Sequence record: PQ480333.1
From: Escherichia phage NRG-P0074
DNA length: 64,000 bases
Strand: one strand, 5' to 3'
Shown piece after piece: positions 8,303-47,938 of this stretch. The notes under the pieces are model-generated. The model was not told the origin of the DNA. It ran no database searches and saw nothing but the letters and a program-made list of their open reading frames with translations. The position numbers and the translations under genes were made by a program. Numbering within the stretch: the stretch's first letter is position 1; each line of letters opens with the position of its first letter.

Positions 8303-8842
8303 ATGAGAACATTTTTAACTGGACCTTATCTATCCCTGATGAATGCTTTTACACACCATTCTGATGCTAGAGTAGAAGAAATTTGTAAGAACGGTTATAT
8401 CCCACCGTTTGAAGACGTACTCAAGCAGTACTGTACACTTCGTTTAGACGGCGGCAGACAATCAGGTAAATCGACCGCAGTAACTAATTTTGCTGCTAAT
8501 TGGCTGTATGATGGTGGAACAGTTATTGTTCTTTCTAATACTTCAGCTTATGCTAAAATTTCTGCTGGCAACATTGAAAAAGAATTTTCTCGTTATTCTA
8601 GCGATGATATTCGATTCCGTTTATTTACTGATTCTGTTCGTAGTTTTATTGGCAATGAAGGTTCTAAATTCCGTGGATTAACGCTTTCTCGTATTCTGTA
8701 TATAATTGACGAGCCTATTAAAGCTCCTGATATGGATAAGATTTACAATGTCCACATTAAAACAGTACAGCACTGCTGCAAAAGCAAATATTGCATCGGC
8801 GGTAATGCTCGTCCTCAATTTTTTGTGATTGGAATGCAATGA
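8303..8842 (+). CDS. hypothetical P-loop NTPase
   Basis: Walker A GGRQSGKST and Walker B-like LYIIDEP; 179 aa. Confidence 0.55.
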   Translation: MRTFLTGPYLSLMNAFTHHSDARVEEICKNGYIPPFEDVLKQYCTLRLDGGRQSGKSTAVTNFAANWLYDGGTVIVLSNTSAYAKISAGNIEKEFSRYSSDDIRFRLFTDSVRSFIGNEGSKFRGLTLSRILYIIDEPIKAPDMDKIYNVHIKTVQHCCKSKYCIGGNARPQFFVIGMQ

Positions 8843-9147
8843 TGACCACTATTGAAGTTTTTGAGTATTGTTATAACAGCCCAGTATGCAATAAAAGGGC
8901 TCTTGTAGAAAATTACGAGATTTACCATTTTAAACCTAAACGATATCGTTTGACTAAAGGTCCGTTCGCAGGGCAGCAGGTTCTTTGTACTGCTCCTAAT
9001 GCACGGTTGATGACTAGTATTCCGCATTTCAAAATGGAATTTATTGATGGGCCATTTAAGGGATTAATCACTCAAAGTTTAATGGCGTTTAATTCCGACC
9101 CATTTTTGATTAAAGAAAAATCTTGGATAAATTTATTTTCTAATTGA
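8839..9147 (+). CDS. hypothetical protein
   Basis: ATGA-coupled ORF, 102 aa. Confidence 0.5.
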   Translation: MMTTIEVFEYCYNSPVCNKRALVENYEIYHFKPKRYRLTKGPFAGQQVLCTAPNARLMTSIPHFKMEFIDGPFKGLITQSLMAFNSDPFLIKEKSWINLFSN

Positions 9148-9153
9148 GGTTAT

Positions 9154-9516
9154 ATGAAAGCATATCAAATTCTTGAAGGTGCACATAAAGGCACTATTTA
9201 TTTTGAAGACGGTACTCAAGCCCGGATTATTGTCTCTAAGACTTTTAAAGAAGACACTATTGTAGACCCGGAAATTTTCTACGGTTTGCATGCCCGTGAA
9301 ATTGAAATTGAACATCAACCTAAAGTTAAAATTGAAGGTGGTCAACATCTGAACGTTAACGTTCTGCGTCGCGAAACTCTGGAAGATGCAGTTAAACATC
9401 CGGAAAAATATCCGCAGCTGACCATCCGTGTATCTGGTTATGCAGTTCGCTTTAACTCTCTGACTCCGGAACAGCAGCGCGACGTTATCGCTCGTACCTT
9501 TACTGAGAGTCTATAA
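9154..9516 (+). CDS. autonomous glycyl radical cofactor (GrcA/YfiD-like; T4 Y06I-like)
   Basis: C-terminal glycyl-radical domain with [25 protein letters not shown] motif. Confidence 0.85.
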
Positions 9517-9740
9517 TGGCTAAATTGATTATAGAAGGGTCTGAAGATGTTTTAAAATGTTTTGCCGCCTGGTTTAGTTGCTCAGGCGAGCAATCATTCA
9601 TTGAAGCATTTAGAATGGGTGATATTACTGGAAACTATCCGACAACTGATATCACTGTACATGGATATGGTATTAATGAGCCTATCCAATTGGTCGAATA
9701 TGACCTTGCCACTGATGAGGAAATTCCTTATGTCGATTGA
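9516..9740 (+). CDS. hypothetical protein
   Basis: 74 aa ORF coupled to upstream gene. Confidence 0.45.
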   Translation: MAKLIIEGSEDVLKCFAAWFSCSGEQSFIEAFRMGDITGNYPTTDITVHGYGINEPIQLVEYDLATDEEIPYVD

Positions 9741-9996
9741 AGACATCAAAGGCTACAAGCCACATACCGACGATAAAATCAGTAAAGTGAACGCTATTAA
9801 AGATGCAGAAGTCCGTCTTGGATTGATGTTTGATGCTCTGATTGAAGAAGCATATATCTTGAAAGAAAATGAAACAGAGCAACAAACCAAAGAAGATATG
9901 GATGCAGTGCAGGCTCTTAAGTATGCTAAGCAACATCTAAAAGAAGCCAGCATGTGGGCGTGTCGTGCAGTATTTCGACCTGAGGAAAAATACTAA
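9730..9996 (+). CDS. hypothetical protein
   Basis: ATG 9730 overlapping upstream stop; the listed 9562 ORF is probably an N-terminal over-extension. Confidence 0.45.
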   Translation: MSIEDIKGYKPHTDDKISKVNAIKDAEVRLGLMFDALIEEAYILKENETEQQTKEDMDAVQALKYAKQHLKEASMWACRAVFRPEEKY

Positions 9997-42895: not shown

Positions 42896-43531
42896 ATGAA
42901 AACTACTCCTATTACTATCGCTATTGACGCAATCATAAAACAAGCTTCTTCTTTGGCCGCTATGGCCAAAGTAATTAGTCAAAACCCTGCTCGTTATAAT
43001 GCTATTCTAGAAACTCTTCGACGCCCGGGACTTAGTAATTATGAAAGCCGAGTAATTATTACAGGTGTTGGTAAGAATGCTAATATTGCAACTAAAGCTT
43101 CTGAGACATTTGCTTCACTCGGTATCCCGAGTATGTACTTGAACACTGGGCATTATTCTCACGGTGATGCAGGATTCATTGCGCCTAATGACGTGTTGAT
43201 TCATATTAGTCGTTCTGGTAAAACTGAAGAAATGATAGGCGTGGCTAAGCATCTTAAAATGATTCGACCGAACGTCAAACAGATTCTGTTGCATTGTAAC
43301 CCAGACATTCCACAAGAAAATGAAGCCCTTTTTGATTACTCTTTCTGTACAGGCATCGCAGTAGAGGTTGATGAGAATTCTCTGGCTCCGACTATGTCCA
43401 CTACATTGTTGTTAGCGCTTATCGATACGTTCGCTATCAACCTTTCGTCTGAACGTGGATTTACCTCTAATGACTTCCTTAAGTTCCACCCTGGTGGTGC
43501 ACTAGGTGCCATGTTACGAGGCGAACAATGA
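42896..43531 (+). CDS. SIS-domain sugar-phosphate isomerase, KdsD/GutQ-like (putative D-arabinose-5-phosphate isomerase), no CBS domains
   Basis: VIITGVGKNANIATKASETFASLGIP, HGDAGFIAPNDVLIHISRSGKTEE, LAPTMSTT and FLKFHPGGALG align by eye with E. coli KdsD SIS-domain motifs. Confidence 0.8.
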   Translation: MKTTPITIAIDAIIKQASSLAAMAKVISQNPARYNAILETLRRPGLSNYESRVIITGVGKNANIATKASETFASLGIPSMYLNTGHYSHGDAGFIAPNDVLIHISRSGKTEEMIGVAKHLKMIRPNVKQILLHCNPDIPQENEALFDYSFCTGIAVEVDENSLAPTMSTTLLLALIDTFAINLSSERGFTSNDFLKFHPGGALGAMLRGEQ

Positions 43532-43712: not shown

Positions 43713-45398
43713 ATGAAAAAAGCTGTTATTCTTGGTGCTGGACTGGCAACTCGTTTATATCCAATAACGCATCATATTCCTAAGGTGCTTGTTAACTATA
43801 AACAAGACACTATTCTGAGCAATTTGTATACAATTTATTCTGACCTTGGCGCAGATGAAATTATTGTAGTAGTTCATTCAAAATTTGCTGAAACTGTTCG
43901 AGCTTATTGTGAGCAAGAAGGGTTCAATGTGACTATTCGTACAGTTGATGAAGCGTATGGTTCTGCTTATGCTCTTGCTAAATTACACAAAGATTTAGAC
44001 GGCCATAATGTAATTGTTAACTGGTGTGATATTATTCCGGATTTTGGTTCATGGTCTTGGAATGTTAACGCAATCTATGTTAAGGGTGACGAATGTCGAT
44101 ATAATTTCGACGGTGAAAATATCACTAACGTAGGTTCAACAGGTGGTAATGTTGTAGGAATTTATCAGTTCAAAGACTGGGAATTCTATATGGGTTCTAC
44201 TGATGAGGAAATTCATGAATACTGCAAAGGACGTGATTTCGTAGAATTCCTTTACGGCAGCGCATTCAATAAATCAGAGCTTATGAATCTAATTGATTTA
44301 GGTGATATGCCTAAACTTGAAAAAGCTCATGAAGTTCGTGAACTTAATCGTAGTTTTAATGCAGTTGAAATTGGTGAAGAAACTGTAACTAAATTCGCAT
44401 TAACCGAACAGGGACGAGCTCTTCAGAAAGATGAGATTTCATGGTATCTTAAAGTGAAATCAGATTCAGTTCCTCAGTTAGTTTCTGTTAATGAAAATAA
44501 CTTTGAAATGGAACGCATTAAAGGTAAGCCGGCATTTGAATATATTAAATCCAAATCAAGTCTTGCTCGTCCACAAATTGTTGATGCAATTTTAGATGCA
44601 CTGAAATTCAGCACAGACACTTATTTTGTAAGTCCTGAAACTGTTCGTCGTGATTTCACTAAAGAATTCTATACGAAAGTTATTGATCGTTGTGAAAGCA
44701 TTCAACCATTGATTGATTCATTTGGTAAAATCACACATGTGAACTACACTAAGATTGGACGTCTGAAGCCAATGCTGAAACAAGCTTTAGAACATCTTAT
44801 TCGTTATCATAACCGTTCTCAGGGACAGTACTCTGTTATTCATGGTGACCCGAACTTCAGTAATACTATGATTACTGATAACGGCGAAGTTAAGTTTATC
44901 GACCCTCGTGGATATTTTGGCGAAACCAAGATTTACGGGCCAAAATTGTACGATGAAGCTAAAGTGCTTTATGCTGTTTCAGGTTATGATGAATTCAACG
45001 CTAATCCGACCTGGGGACAGTTTACTATTGATGAAACAACTTGTAATGTGACTATTAACATCAATCCATTAGTTTACAAATATGGAAAGATGAGTTCGTT
45101 TAACGAGTATCATCATTTGGCAGTGGCAATTATCTGGATTGCATTAGGTGGTTATTTCAAGAATAATCCACTTAAAGCGGTAGCCGCATATTATAAAGGT
45201 ATGGAACTTCTGACTAAGCAATTACGTAACATGGGCCGTGTACTTCAGGACGGCTCTATTAGTTATGACGTAGCAGAACCTGTAACGGCTACTCTGATTA
45301 CAAAAAATCCTGGTAAATGGGTACTAACTGATAAAGAAACTGGTGTTTCCTATCGTCCAATCGGTGGCGATATCACTCATCAATGGGAACGAATTTGA
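43713..45398 (+). CDS. bifunctional sugar-1-phosphate nucleotidyltransferase / sugar kinase (APH-MtnK-like)
   Basis: N-term RmlA/GalU-like ILGAGLATRLYPIT...PK; C-term protein-kinase-like catalytic loop VIHGDPNFSN and metal-binding IDPRGYFG. Confidence 0.7.
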   Translation: MKKAVILGAGLATRLYPITHHIPKVLVNYKQDTILSNLYTIYSDLGADEIIVVVHSKFAETVRAYCEQEGFNVTIRTVDEAYGSAYALAKLHKDLDGHNVIVNWCDIIPDFGSWSWNVNAIYVKGDECRYNFDGENITNVGSTGGNVVGIYQFKDWEFYMGSTDEEIHEYCKGRDFVEFLYGSAFNKSELMNLIDLGDMPKLEKAHEVRELNRSFNAVEIGEETVTKFALTEQGRALQKDEISWYLKVKSDSVPQLVSVNENNFEMERIKGKPAFEYIKSKSSLARPQIVDAILDALKFSTDTYFVSPETVRRDFTKEFYTKVIDRCESIQPLIDSFGKITHVNYTKIGRLKPMLKQALEHLIRYHNRSQGQYSVIHGDPNFSNTMITDNGEVKFIDPRGYFGETKIYGPKLYDEAKVLYAVSGYDEFNANPTWGQFTIDETTCNVTININPLVYKYGKMSSFNEYHHLAVAIIWIALGGYFKNNPLKAVAAYYKGMELLTKQLRNMGRVLQDGSISYDVAEPVTATLITKNPGKWVLTDKETGVSYRPIGGDITHQWERI

Positions 45399-46144
45399 TA
45401 CATTATCTCTACAAAACTACTAATCTTATAAACGGTAAAGTTTATTTAGGAATGCACTCGGCTGAAGAAGCCGAGCCTTTAGATTTATATAAAGGTTCTG
45501 GTAAATTATATAAAAAGGCTGAAAGGAAATACGGGAAGGAAAATTTTCTTAAAGAAATCATTTCCTACCATAGCTCGAGAGAAGAATTAAAAATAGCTGA
45601 AAAGGCTCTAATAACATTAGACATAGTTAAAGACCCAAATTATTACAATCTTAAAACTGGTGGCGAAGGCGGTTCTGACGGGTTATCCCAAAGGTCCAAG
45701 GATAAAATTTCTAAGGCAAATAAAGGACGTTTAGTTGGTGATAAAAACCCAAGATGGGGTAAAACTTTGTCAGCTGAATCTATAGCTAGGGGTAAAGAAA
45801 AGCACAGGAGGTATGGTAAACCTGCATTACATGGTCTAAAGATTAATGTAGATGGCAAATATTATGAATCCTGTCGGGAAGCGGCTAAAGATTTGGGTAT
45901 ATCTTCTGCCACGATTCAAAAGAGAGTAAAATCGCCTAAATATCTTAATTATCGATATCAGGACGAAAGCAAAAATGCTCACAAGTCTCAAAAATTTGTT
46001 AAAATAAACGAAAATTACTATGAATCTCTTAGGATAGCTGAAAAGAAAACGGGTATTCCTAGAAAGCGTATAGCTGATAATATTAAAAATTCTATTGAAG
46101 GATATTGCTATGAAACCATTACATCTTTGCGTGGACGTCGATGA
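45383..46144 (+). CDS. GIY-YIG homing endonuclease (Seg-like), free-standing mobile gene
   Basis: N-terminal GIY-YIG module HYLYKTTNLINGKVYLGMH; Lys-rich C-terminal DNA-binding region; overlaps both neighbours. Confidence 0.7.
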   Translation: MGTNLIHYLYKTTNLINGKVYLGMHSAEEAEPLDLYKGSGKLYKKAERKYGKENFLKEIISYHSSREELKIAEKALITLDIVKDPNYYNLKTGGEGGSDGLSQRSKDKISKANKGRLVGDKNPRWGKTLSAESIARGKEKHRRYGKPALHGLKINVDGKYYESCREAAKDLGISSATIQKRVKSPKYLNYRYQDESKNAHKSQKFVKINENYYESLRIAEKKTGIPRKRIADNIKNSIEGYCYETITSLRGRR

Positions 46145-46484
46145 TTGTATAACAGAGTGGAATAACAATCGTGATTACGTGAACTTCAAACCAGACGTCG
46201 AAATGGTGACTGCCATTAATGCCCTGTATGATGCAGGGCATACCATAACGCTTTACACTGCTCGCGGTATGAAGTCAGTAGGTCCTGGTCGTATAGCAAT
46301 TGACATTCTCCCGAGTCTGATTCAGAACTTGGCAAACATTGGCTTGAAGTACCATAATTTGCTAACACATAAACCAGTATATGATTGGATTATCGACGAC
46401 AAAGCTATGCGTCCTGACGAATTCAAAGCTCTTATGAATAAAGGCGAATTCGAAACATTTAAATCATATAAACCGAATCTATAA
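46110..46484 (+). CDS. putative HAD-superfamily phosphatase (small, KdsC-size)
   Basis: Motif I-like LCVDVDDCIT, motif II LYTAR, motif III K in THKP, motif IV IIDDK; alternative start 46095. Confidence 0.45.
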   Translation: MKPLHLCVDVDDCITEWNNNRDYVNFKPDVEMVTAINALYDAGHTITLYTARGMKSVGPGRIAIDILPSLIQNLANIGLKYHNLLTHKPVYDWIIDDKAMRPDEFKALMNKGEFETFKSYKPNL

Positions 46485-46541: not shown

Positions 46542-47702
46542 ATGAATACTTTTAAAATCGGAACGAATTTTGATTTAGCTCTTCTTGATAAAATCGTAGA
46601 GCTCAATAAAACTTATCCTAATAGCTTGATAAACGAAGTATACGGCTCTACAAGAGAAATGGCTTTTGTAGCAGCCAGACCTGATTTTAGGCTTCCTGAC
46701 GTTGACAAAAAGATGTTAGAAGATTACGTTAAACGTTGTAACGAATTAGGTATTTGCTTTAACTATACACTCAACACGATAAATCCTGGTTCAAAAAGAG
46801 AACTAGTTGAGTGGAAGAAGAAAGCTATTCAGGATTATGTTCAGTATCTTTGGTCAATAGGCGTATGGCGTATTACTATCGCTAACCCTGTTGTTATGGA
46901 AATTGTTCGTGAAGTCAATAAAGACATTGAGATTGAAGTTTCAACAATTCTACATGTCGATGCTGTAACTCAAATCAAATACTTGCATGACCAATATAAT
47001 ATCAAAAAGGTCTGCTGTGGAATTCATAAGAACCGTTCAGTTTCTTTCCTGAAGCGTGCAGCAGAGTTTTGCAATAAGAACAATATAATATTTGAAGTTC
47101 TTGTAAATGAGTTCTGTTCTAATGCTGGTAAAGGGTATACAACACATTGTAGCTATCGTGACTCTTGCTATATTTTCCATAGTACTGATGTTACAGCTGA
47201 TGATGCTAAATCCTTAAACGGATATCCTATGCAGCACTGTATTAAAGCTCGTGATACAGACCCATTTAACTGGTTGAGAACTCGTTTTGTTCGTCCTCAA
47301 GATTTGAAACTTTATAATGATATTGGTATCACTCAATTCAAAGTTTCAGGACGTACAGGTAGCACAGACTACATTTTGAAAGTTCTTGAAGCATACGCTT
47401 CTGAAAAGTTTGAAGGTAATTTGTTAGAACTGTGGAAGCCTTTAGAGACTATTTTCACTCTTGAAAACGAAACTGAGTTTTCACATACAGTAAATATTGA
47501 AACCTCTTTGTTAGATGGCTTTTTAGAAAAAAGGTGGTTCAGACATCCAGATTTCGATTGTGCTAATGAAATCTGCGGGACGACGTGTACATATTGTGAA
47601 AGATATTATAAACGTCAATTATCTAAAAACGGGTTAGCAGAAAACTCTATATCTATTATTGATATAACTAACTCTGATGACGCTTTGAGGTACCCGGAAT
47701 GA
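46542..47702 (+). CDS. hypothetical Cys-rich protein (possible Fe-S/metal-binding enzyme, U32-like fold not excluded)
   Basis: 386 aa; Cys cluster EFCSNAGKGYTTHCSYRDSC and C-terminal CANEICGTTCTYC; no Rossmann or radical-SAM CxxxCxxC. Confidence 0.55.
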   Translation: MNTFKIGTNFDLALLDKIVELNKTYPNSLINEVYGSTREMAFVAARPDFRLPDVDKKMLEDYVKRCNELGICFNYTLNTINPGSKRELVEWKKKAIQDYVQYLWSIGVWRITIANPVVMEIVREVNKDIEIEVSTILHVDAVTQIKYLHDQYNIKKVCCGIHKNRSVSFLKRAAEFCNKNNIIFEVLVNEFCSNAGKGYTTHCSYRDSCYIFHSTDVTADDAKSLNGYPMQHCIKARDTDPFNWLRTRFVRPQDLKLYNDIGITQFKVSGRTGSTDYILKVLEAYASEKFEGNLLELWKPLETIFTLENETEFSHTVNIETSLLDGFLEKRWFRHPDFDCANEICGTTCTYCERYYKRQLSKNGLAENSISIIDITNSDDALRYPE

Positions 47703-47938
47703 TTTCTAGAAAAACTTTTAACCACCAACTTAATGAAGAGATTTTGACTATGAAACTGAACACTAATGAACAAATTCTTAAAAAGGCCCTGATGGGCCTG
47801 TTTGAAACTAAAGCGGCTAAAGTGATTAAAGAACCTGTTCAATTGGAATACTACGCTGATGCATTTCTTCATAGTGTTCTTGGAAGTATCGATGCTGAAG
47901 CTTTACGTTATATCAACATTGTCAAGAAATTCAAATAA
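47699..47938 (+). CDS. hypothetical protein
   Basis: 79 aa ATGA-coupled ORF upstream of gene 42. Confidence 0.45.
   Translation: MISRKTFNHQLNEEILTMKLNTNEQILKKALMGLFETKAAKVIKEPVQLEYYADAFLHSVLGSIDAEALRYINIVKKFK

Follow-up and report, generated by a model that had tools for sequence, protein, structure and literature searches.

The U32-family gene and its cassette

The window analysed here is a 64,000-nucleotide stretch of Escherichia phage NRG-P0074 (PQ480333.1), an RB69-like Mosigvirus of the Straboviridae (best match 99.1% identical over 6 kb), and the gene of interest in it is the orthologue of RB69 gp50, a U32-family gene referred to as gp50 hereafter. It lies inside a cassette that is placed between the DNA polymerase gene gp43 and uvsX and is syntenic with that of RB69, in which the genes follow in the order of arabinose-5-phosphate isomerase (API), AfhE-like enzyme, HAD-like phosphatase, U32 protein, gp49, gp48, glycosyltransferase (GT) and kinase (Table 1). 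The original prediction, made from the letters of the window, had placed the gene in a sugar cassette; this description is too narrow, as the cassette is the published arabinosyl-5-hydroxycytosine DNA-modification cluster of RB69 (PMC13326640). RB69 DNA is reported as modified at cytosine only, and RB69 gp48 was demonstrated experimentally to make 5-hydroxy-deoxycytidine monophosphate (5-hydroxy-dCMP) from dCMP, to bind flavin and to take its oxygen from 18O2 (PMC13326640). The gp48 orthologue in the window shows the D169N, N177D and L143E signature in alignment. In the same paper gp50 appears only in Table 1, as a ‘Sugar or heterocycle reductase’ with a fold match to 5d88, and the text does not contain the words U32, prephenate, chorismate or hydroxylase. 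Its Discussion describes two other known pyrimidine-hydroxylation pathways as unrelated to gp48, and leaves unremarked that a homologue of one such pathway is encoded two genes upstream of gp48.

The open reading frame (ORF) originally proposed for gp50, with an ATG start and a length of 386 amino acid (aa) residues, was borne out, and all three cysteine clusters described in it were found: C158-C159 (CCGIH), E190-F191-C192 ... C203 ... C209 (EFCSNAGKGYTTHCSYRDSC) and C340/C345/C349/C352 (CANEICGTTCTYC). Cysteine accounts for 13 of the 386 residues (3.4%), compared with a mean of 1.27% in the 74 plus-strand ORFs of the window that have 100 aa or more, and no other ORF above 200 aa reaches this fraction. 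Across 111 homologues with identities down to 46%, nine cysteines (C158, C192, C203, C209, C233, C340, C345, C349 and C352) do not vary and the conservation of C177 is at least 90%, and for this reason the cysteines are not there by chance. The protein keeps 99-100% identity throughout about 150 Mosigvirus (RB69-like) genomes and 82-89% in T-even-like phages of Klebsiella, Serratia, Yersinia, Proteus, Edwardsiella, Pectobacterium, Providencia and Shewanella, with a dN/dS of ~0.06-0.07 where synonymous sites are unsaturated. Its aa identities of 83-86%, set against 65-74% for the DNA polymerase, make U32 the best conserved gene of the region, and even the nearest of its distant homologues share 50-55% identity with it, in loci whose API, AfhE and GT reach only 22-36%. 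The gp50 gene is real and under strong purifying selection.

The family of gp50, described as unknown in the original prediction, is U32, as residues 94-286 match Pfam PF01136 Peptidase_U32 with 42.2 bits (gathering cut-off 22.4, E 7e-11); a Peptidase_U32 match for RB69ORF050c was listed as early as 2006 (PMC1524935). A loose resemblance of the N-terminal region to U32-type, iron-sulphur (Fe-S), O2-independent hydroxylases had in fact been remarked upon, which was right but understated, as the whole catalytic core is U32. The absence of a radical-SAM CxxxCxxC and of a Rossmann motif, also noted at that time, is consistent with the sequence and with zero such Pfam matches. An AlphaFold2 model built from 111 homologues (pLDDT 93.5, pTM 0.91) has the TIM-barrel fold of U32 proteins as its predicted fold, and in the AlphaFold/Foldseek fold assignment, which had been put forward as a check, Foldseek ranked 5d88 first. 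This entry, Mk0906, an archaeal protein with 247 aa and no known function, provides the one U32 structure solved so far; it shares 14% identity with gp50 and is without the C-terminal Cys domain of gp50. It was found by fold comparison only, as a PDB sequence search (phmmer) with gp50 gave zero matches at E ≤ 1. PF01136 was the only Pfam domain detected in gp50, with DUF3656 not found, and gp50 fell below the cut-off of the NCBIfam models of characterised U32 subfamilies, the sole match being UbiU (18.5 bits against 440) with none for TrhP and UbiV. gp50 is a member of the U32 superfamily and not an orthologue of any characterised subfamily. Database labels such as ‘peptidase’ and ‘collagenase-like protease’ would make gp50 a protease, in keeping with the historical family name and with the GenBank and PHROG annotations. 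We consider this hardly credible, given that no proteolytic mechanism has been established for U32 (PMC5727448), the invariant residues are those of Fe-S/hydroxylase proteins, and the genomic context is nucleotide metabolism rather than morphogenesis.

Among the four U32 paralogues of E. coli, the best match was RlhA (YdcP), the 23S rRNA 5-hydroxycytidine-2501 synthase: hhalign of the gp50 clade profile gave a marginal similarity to RlhA, with a probability of 85% (residues 53-285, 207 columns, E 6e-6), compared with 19% for TrhP and 6% for UbiU. The two proteins share the U32 core, in which E190, C203 and C209 of gp50, invariant in the 111 homologues, align with E161, C169 and C176 of RlhA (E162, C170 and C177 of TrhP), and these RlhA and TrhP residues are essential for hydroxylation (PMC5727448; PMC6599085). 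RlhA has 653 aa, DUF3656, the essential C-terminal Cys580/Cys611 and one rRNA residue as its target, whereas gp50, which does not fall into the RlhA subfamily, has 386 aa with neither DUF3656 nor counterparts of Cys580/Cys611, its own CX4CX3CX2C tail, C-x5-C in place of C-x6-C and a proposed deoxynucleotide substrate. The canonical U32 Cys motif is CX6CX15CX3/4C, with variant Cys motifs in UbiU and UbiV (PMC6747719). In gp50, C233 could complete a four-Cys site together with C158 (47013-47015), C177 and C192, and a second site, for a metal or Fe-S, is probably formed by the C-terminal CX4CX3CX2C cluster. Unlike UbiU and UbiV, which pair as a heterodimer and hold one cluster apiece, gp50 is a single chain, in which the number of invariant cysteines would suffice for two candidate metal sites.

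Table 1 Features of gp50 and of the surrounding cassette, with positions in the window
Feature	Position	Strand	Basis or remark
U32-family, putative Fe-S protein gene	46542..47702	+	Orthologue of RB69 gp50 / RB69p050, 386 aa; candidate prephenate-dependent, O2-independent cytosine/dCMP C5-hydroxylase
Pfam Peptidase_U32 region, TIM-barrel core	46821..47399	+	Residues 94-286
U32 signature E190-F191-C192 ... H202-C203-x5-C209-Y	47109..47168	+	hhalign to RlhA; invariance
Invariant C233, candidate further Fe-S ligand	47238..47240	+	Invariant in 111 sequences; ligand role inferred
C340-x4-C345-x3-C349-x2-C352 cluster	47559..47597	+	Four invariant Cys; model pLDDT 95-97
SIS-domain arabinose-5-phosphate isomerase (API; gp55 orthologue)	42896..43531	+	Pfam SIS; RB69 annotation
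Bifunctional nucleotidyltransferase/kinase (gp52:53 / AfhE-like), 561 aa, intact	43713..45398	+	Pfam NTP_transferase and kinase-like matches; PMC13326640
GIY-YIG/NUMOD homing endonuclease, 253 aa	45383..46144	+	Inserted between AfhE-like and HAD genes
HAD-like phosphatase (gp51 / AfhF-like), directly upstream of U32	46095..46484	+	Synteny with RB69p051; role in PMC13326640
gp49-like 79-aa ORF	47699..47938	+	ATG overlaps U32 stop (ATGA); without Pfam/NCBIfam match
ThyA homologue (gp48 orthologue), flavin/O2-dependent 5-hydroxy-dCMP synthase	47981..48697	+	Pfam Thymidylat_synt; RB69 gp48 experiment (PMC13326640)
Glycosyltransferase (gp46:47 orthologue, putative first arabinosyltransferase), 299 aa, intact	48697..49596	+	Synteny; PMC13326640 Table 1
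P-loop thymidylate-kinase-like nucleotide kinase (gp45 orthologue)	49598..50146	+	Synteny; PMC13326640 Table 1; weak P-loop Pfam matches

Chorismate mutase genes and the viral U32 clade

In Enterobacter phage Entb_45, a genuine AroQ chorismate mutase (CM) is encoded by the 79-aa ORF that overlaps the stop codon of U32; it matches Pfam CM_2 with 40.9 bits (cut-off 27) as well as many NCBIfam CM models and keeps the catalytic R/R/K/E/S-x3-Q pattern. CM homologues between U32 and the ThyA-like gene were found in 51 phage records, which cover at least 11 host genera, and 14 of 18 T4-like loci have them as well, while 11 of 40 distant viral loci, whose U32 proteins are 44-55% identical, hold a DAHP-synthase–CM fusion (PF00793 125 bits, PF01817 65 bits), a stand-alone CM (52 bits) or a DAHP synthase alone beside or near U32. 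Chorismate mutase produces prephenate. This compound is the demonstrated oxygen donor for UbiU/V and a genetic requirement for RlhA and TrhP (PMC10990095; PMC5727448; PMC6599085). The phage DAHP synthase genes, usually with a C-terminal CM fused, are found at L034:7302-8354, in loci L031, L033, L035 and L049, at L020:9384-10127 and in L057; DAHP synthase is the first committed step of the shikimate pathway, and these genes would be an auxiliary metabolic gene set driving carbon to prephenate.

The gp49-like ORF of the window sits in the slot that holds CM in most related genera. Its identity as a diverged CM was rejected, as it shows no BLASTP similarity and no Pfam/NCBIfam match, and a comparison with phage CMs gave 1.5 bits with a hidden Markov model (HMM) and a probability of 0.1% with hhalign. 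It belongs to a family of its own, with homologues in 162 phage records, that coexists with CM in Yersinia phages, lying between U32 and CM; in Serratia phage CHI14 the N-terminal part of gp49 appears to be fused to CM. The gp49 of the window has no Cys, and, being translationally coupled to U32 through the ATGA overlap, it may act as a U32 accessory protein. RB69-type phages, with CM lost, would depend on the host PheA and TyrA.

The U32 clade is of considerable size and well set apart: a profile search of 1.84 billion cluster representatives gave 493 matches at E ≤ 1e-30 and no more than 1,713 at E ≤ 1e-3, the clade size of ~500 being counted on representatives at 50% identity. The clade is overwhelmingly viral, with 40 loci in IMG/VR; among one genome each of 185,579 species it occurs in only 12 loci, nearly all on contigs of metagenome-assembled genomes (MAGs), for the most part in bins of strict anaerobes (Oscillospiraceae, Romboutsia, Erysipelotrichales, Gastranaerophilaceae, Tannerella and Phocaeicola). 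For 58 loci (18 T4-like and 40 distant), every ORF was assigned to a cluster and the recurrent clusters were annotated, and in the loci analysed the clade always lies among genes of deoxynucleoside monophosphate (dNMP) metabolism. Three arrangements were distinguished in the distant loci: type A, GT – API – AfhE-like – (kinase) – (DAHPS-CM) – HAD – U32; type B, primase – ? – MazG – kinase – gp46:47-like GT – U32 – Pol III alpha; and type C, GP88 – guanylate-kinase/methyltransferase fusion – unknown – U32. Full-length gp46:47 homologues adjoin U32 in type B loci, which hold the pyrophosphohydrolase, kinase and GT that modification at the pool level in the manner of T4 calls for, with U32 in the place of T4 gp42.

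These arrangements bear on the possibility that gp50 tailors a sugar or reduces a heterocycle, as worded in Table 1 of PMC13326640, with arabinose-phosphate, NDP-arabinose or attached arabinose as its substrate. Such a role would agree with the position of U32, which has the HAD phosphatase on one side and the remaining cassette genes on the other, with the API and AfhE-like genes next to it in type A loci and with the TIM barrel, a common fold among sugar-phosphate enzymes, but it is improbable because genes for sugar synthesis are missing from type B and type C loci, in which U32 is present, and because Acinetobacter phages arrive at the arabinosylated base with no U32. The Acinetobacter phages DLP3 and Maestro and the Pseudomonas phage PspYZU05 all have arabinose genes and no U32, and DLP3 and Maestro are reported to make arabinosylated 5-hydroxycytosine (PMC13326640); moreover, the CM and DAHP synthase neighbours would be left unexplained, and a sugar is not known as the substrate of any U32 protein. 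Of the extra tailoring step on sugar or base that had been suggested for gp50 originally, the base is favoured, both by the CM adjacency and by the lack of a gp48-type enzyme near the distant U32 genes (see below), and the sugar disfavoured; nor would the step be an extra one, but rather an alternative for the first step of the pathway, C5 hydroxylation.

All 18 T4-like loci hold a gp48-type synthase; among the 40 distant loci, which were surveyed only over flanks of up to 10 kb on contig fragments, none does. The candidate of a hidden ThyA-like gene in the distant loci was followed with a six-frame HMM search and five jackhmmer rounds, which gave L022 alone, and the ThyA-family ORF of L022 was rejected as gp48-type, since it has kept D169, N177 and L143 and is a canonical dUMP-type thymidylate synthase. 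The more remote members of the clade adjoin genes for dCMP deaminase, nucleoside deoxyribosyltransferase or UDG-family proteins.

The distribution of the two enzymes was also compared with the relation of the hosts to oxygen. Homologues of gp48 occur in 373 phage records, including 57 of Acinetobacter and 20 of Rhizobium phages, besides phages of Agrobacterium and one Pseudomonas phage. U32-bearing records number 221 and come from phages of Enterobacterales and Shewanella, and any genus besides the ten listed contributes three at most. Phages of strict aerobes (Acinetobacter and Rhizobium) carry gp48, not U32, and in Acinetobacter phage Maestro and Pseudomonas phage PspYZU05 the HAD gene is directly followed by the ThyA-like gene, with no gene between. 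The modification does not require U32, since the cassettes of DLP3, Maestro, PspYZU05 and the Dhakaviruses lack it; U32 is an accessory component of the cassette, at least under oxic conditions. The correspondence with oxygen is imperfect, in that the Dhakaviruses of E. coli are without U32 as well. In the Dhakavirus Escherichia phage dhaeg, a 178-aa P-loop kinase-like ORF (L062:6468-7004) lies between HAD and gp48, with neither U32 nor CM.

Several distant loci show further arrangements around U32. The type C block, consisting of GP88 (PF17338), the fusion, an unknown 267-aa protein and U32, was found at L056:3044-7137 and in L054, L055, L053 and L004/L047, on MAG contigs and on an isolate scaffold of Phocaeicola faecalis, while locus L041 has the order MazG-like – SAM methyltransferase – dCMP deaminase – U32. 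It is pure speculation, by analogy with the conversion of 5-hydroxyuridine (ho5U) to 5-methoxyuridine (mo5U) in tRNA, that the type C block and L041 might be routes to a 5-methoxy-pyrimidine deoxynucleotide. Two U32 paralogues occur in one locus at L004:8001-14360 (also in L047 and L005), reminiscent of UbiU and UbiV; between those of L004 lie genes for NT5C, a nicotinamide mononucleotide (NMN) transporter, a deoxynucleoside kinase, an AlaRS-like protein and a radical-SAM/SPASM protein, followed after the second by a nucleoside 2-deoxyribosyltransferase. UDG-family genes lie a few genes from U32 at L003:1993-2571, L020:5945-6502, L066:1798-2160 and L067:1857-2318, and may handle 5-hydroxyuracil arising from deaminated 5-hydroxycytosine. 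In the viral contig L030 an IS605 OrfB/TnpB-type gene (8689-9948), with a Cas12f-like TNB domain, stands between HAD and U32, and L048, collinear in other respects, is without this insertion.

Proposed function of gp50

The T4 hydroxymethylase uses methylene-tetrahydrofolate and water, and thus works without O2. With the making of 5-hydroxycytosine by a flavin enzyme, the first step became O2-dependent, and a phage whose dCTP is hydrolysed has no means of replicating under anoxia unless it can make 5-hydroxy-dCTP, for which reason gp50 is proposed as the O2-independent alternative. From the established family, fold, residues and genomic associations of gp50, and the established O2 dependence of gp48, we infer Fe-S binding, prephenate use, substrate and O2 independence, and propose that gp50 is an O2-independent, prephenate-dependent 5-hydroxylase of free dCMP, to which we assign a probability of roughly 0.55. 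That gp50 hydroxylates cytosine at C5 at either the dCMP or the DNA level is a broader statement, and we regard it as quite probable.

By analogy with RlhA, TrhP and UbiU/V, gp50 as a [4Fe-4S]-type U32 enzyme would convert dCMP to 5-hydroxy-dCMP without O2. Prephenate would give the oxygen atom, being decarboxylated and aromatised to phenylpyruvate with its hydroxide released onto the oxidised pyrimidine, while the Fe-S cluster(s) of gp50 would carry off two electrons. The 5-hydroxy-dCMP would then join the gp48 route, in which the dNMP kinase and the host NDP kinase would provide the triphosphate, the polymerase would incorporate it and gp46:47 and gp3 would arabinosylate the 5-hydroxycytosine in DNA. 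One step would thereby be served by two hydroxylases, gp48 with flavin and O2 and gp50 with U32 chemistry and prephenate, and by way of gp50 the phage could still exchange its cytosine when the host cell is anoxic, as with E. coli in the gut. One prephenate would be spent per cytosine, i.e. ~62,000 per 168-kb genome at 37% G+C, and this bulk demand is the proposed reason that phages carry CM or DAHP synthase.

The same one-step arrangement of a U32/prephenate enzyme and an O2-dependent enzyme is known in facultative anaerobes from TrhP/TrhO and from UbiU-UbiV/UbiI-H-F, which differ from the gp48/gp50 pair in being cellular and in acting on tRNA or lipid quinone. The genes of gp48 and gp50 lie within ~300 bp of each other, with only the 79-aa gp49 ORF between them. 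RlhA, which needs prephenate and Fe-S biogenesis, is similar to gp50 in the reaction as well, cytosine C5 hydroxylation, which is proposed for gp50. The gp48-type synthases of the ThyA superfamily (RB69 gp48, DLP3 gp80 and HY126 AfhA-type) share with gp50 the pathway and the proposed product, 5-hydroxy-dCMP; gp48 has a thymidylate-synthase fold, uses flavin and O2 and has a demonstrated activity, whereas the activity proposed for gp50 would rely on a U32 TIM barrel, Fe-S and prephenate.

Extended to the whole clade, the proposal reads that the viral U32 proteins are O2-independent pyrimidine C5-hydroxylases for DNA hypermodification, acting on dCMP with prephenate oxygen, as the sole cytosine hydroxylase in phages of strict anaerobes, where the phage CM/DAHP-synthase fusion would feed them, and as one of a dual set with gp48 in T-even phages. 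This extension is tentative, and we put its chances somewhat short of even.

The family assignment itself connects gp50 to nucleic-acid chemistry, as RlhA and TrhP hydroxylate C5 of RNA pyrimidines, where the original prediction had taken a family unrelated to sugar or nucleic-acid chemistry as the outcome that would speak against it. Two other substrates were considered. The main rival is that the same prephenate chemistry takes place on the polymer, with gp50 acting after replication on phage DNA, as a patch for any C left unmodified. RlhA and TrhP, the relatives with a characterised function, do work on polynucleotides (PMC5727448; PMC6599085), and RlhA is the closest E. coli paralogue of gp50, but gp50 has no recognisable nucleic-acid-binding domain, as both the DUF3656 of RlhA and the C-terminal domain of TrhP are missing, and the MazG dNTP pyrophosphohydrolase and dNMP-type kinase of type B loci represent the classic layout of pool-level modification. 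The CM and DAHP synthase genes imply a bulk, stoichiometric prephenate demand that fits the dCMP and the polymer readings alike. Taken together, we consider hydroxylation of the polymer unlikely. Less likely still is a TrhP/RlhA-like RNA hydroxylase whose targets would be tRNA (ho5U34) or rRNA, of the phage or of the host, and which would serve to adjust translation, with its position in the cassette incidental. It would be consistent with RNAs being the only nucleic-acid substrates known for U32 proteins (PMC5727448; PMC6599085), and T-even phages are known to encode tRNAs of their own. Against it, the NCBIfam models of the characterised subfamilies fail on gp50, the RNA-binding extensions are missing, the host already owns TrhP, TrhO and RlhA, and the clade stands beside dNMP/DNA-modification genes in several unrelated viral lineages.

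A number of observations weigh against the proposal. The canonical motif is altered in gp50 to C203-x5-C209-x23-C233, and C192 and C196 of RlhA, the canonical third and fourth Cys, have no gp50 counterpart in the hhalign alignment. The prephenate link is indirect for this window, as this phage and all Mosigviruses are without CM. Dhakaviruses, which infect E. coli, carry gp48 and no U32, so that U32 is dispensable for enterobacterial phages. The absence of gp48-type synthases from the distant loci holds for the flanks surveyed, as given above, and with dCMP deaminase beside U32 in several of these loci, the substrate could be dUMP in some phages. Moreover, no U32 protein has so far been shown to hydroxylate in vitro (PMC10990095).

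None of the papers found in our literature search connects U32 proteins of phages with hydroxylation; its scope did not extend to Mahler et al. 2025 (Cell Host Microbe) and He et al. 2026 (Nat Chem Biol), which may address or contradict the proposal. The July 2026 Nucleic Acids Research paper (PMC13326640) cites both and keeps the ‘reductase’ label, suggesting that the idea is unpublished. The gp50 gene is not mentioned in the Thanatos, Durham and 2018 RB69 papers, and in the literature searched we found no description of a viral U32 enzyme that hydroxylates DNA precursors alongside an O2-dependent isoenzyme and is fed through shikimate-pathway genes of the phage.

The proposal bears on 5-hydroxycytosine synthesis without oxygen in gut phages and on U32 proteins as true hydroxylases. 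If it is correct, coliphages that destroy dCTP in the largely anoxic gut would have an anaerobic route to their replacement base, for which the published synthase needs O2, and prephenate-dependent hydroxylation would extend from one rRNA site, tRNA wobble uridines and ubiquinone to DNA precursors and viruses, with phage CM and DAHP synthase as auxiliary metabolic genes serving DNA modification. As a 386-aa single chain with a soluble substrate, dCMP and prephenate both being commercial, gp50 would be tractable for mechanistic work and would become the first U32 hydroxylase that can be reconstituted in vitro. The ~500 divergent clade members would then mark uncultured phages, many from anaerobes, with probably glycosylated or possibly methoxylated 5-hydroxypyrimidines, which would help to predict restriction/CRISPR resistance and to choose therapeutic phages.

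Other features of the cassette

Two genes that the RB69 reference shows in halves, as ORF052c/053c and ORF046c/047c, are each one uninterrupted ORF in the window, of 561 and 299 aa, in agreement with Lee et al. (PMC13326640), who ascribe the RB69 splits to sequencing errors. A promoter/terminator scan of the cassette gave counts not above the shuffled expectation. The homing-endonuclease ORF overlaps both of its flanking genes, AfhE-like and HAD, and is missing in most close relatives, which cover 88% of the 6-kb query in two pieces; phages a20, BEU50 and JM17 alone align over the full query and thus appear to share the homing endonuclease.

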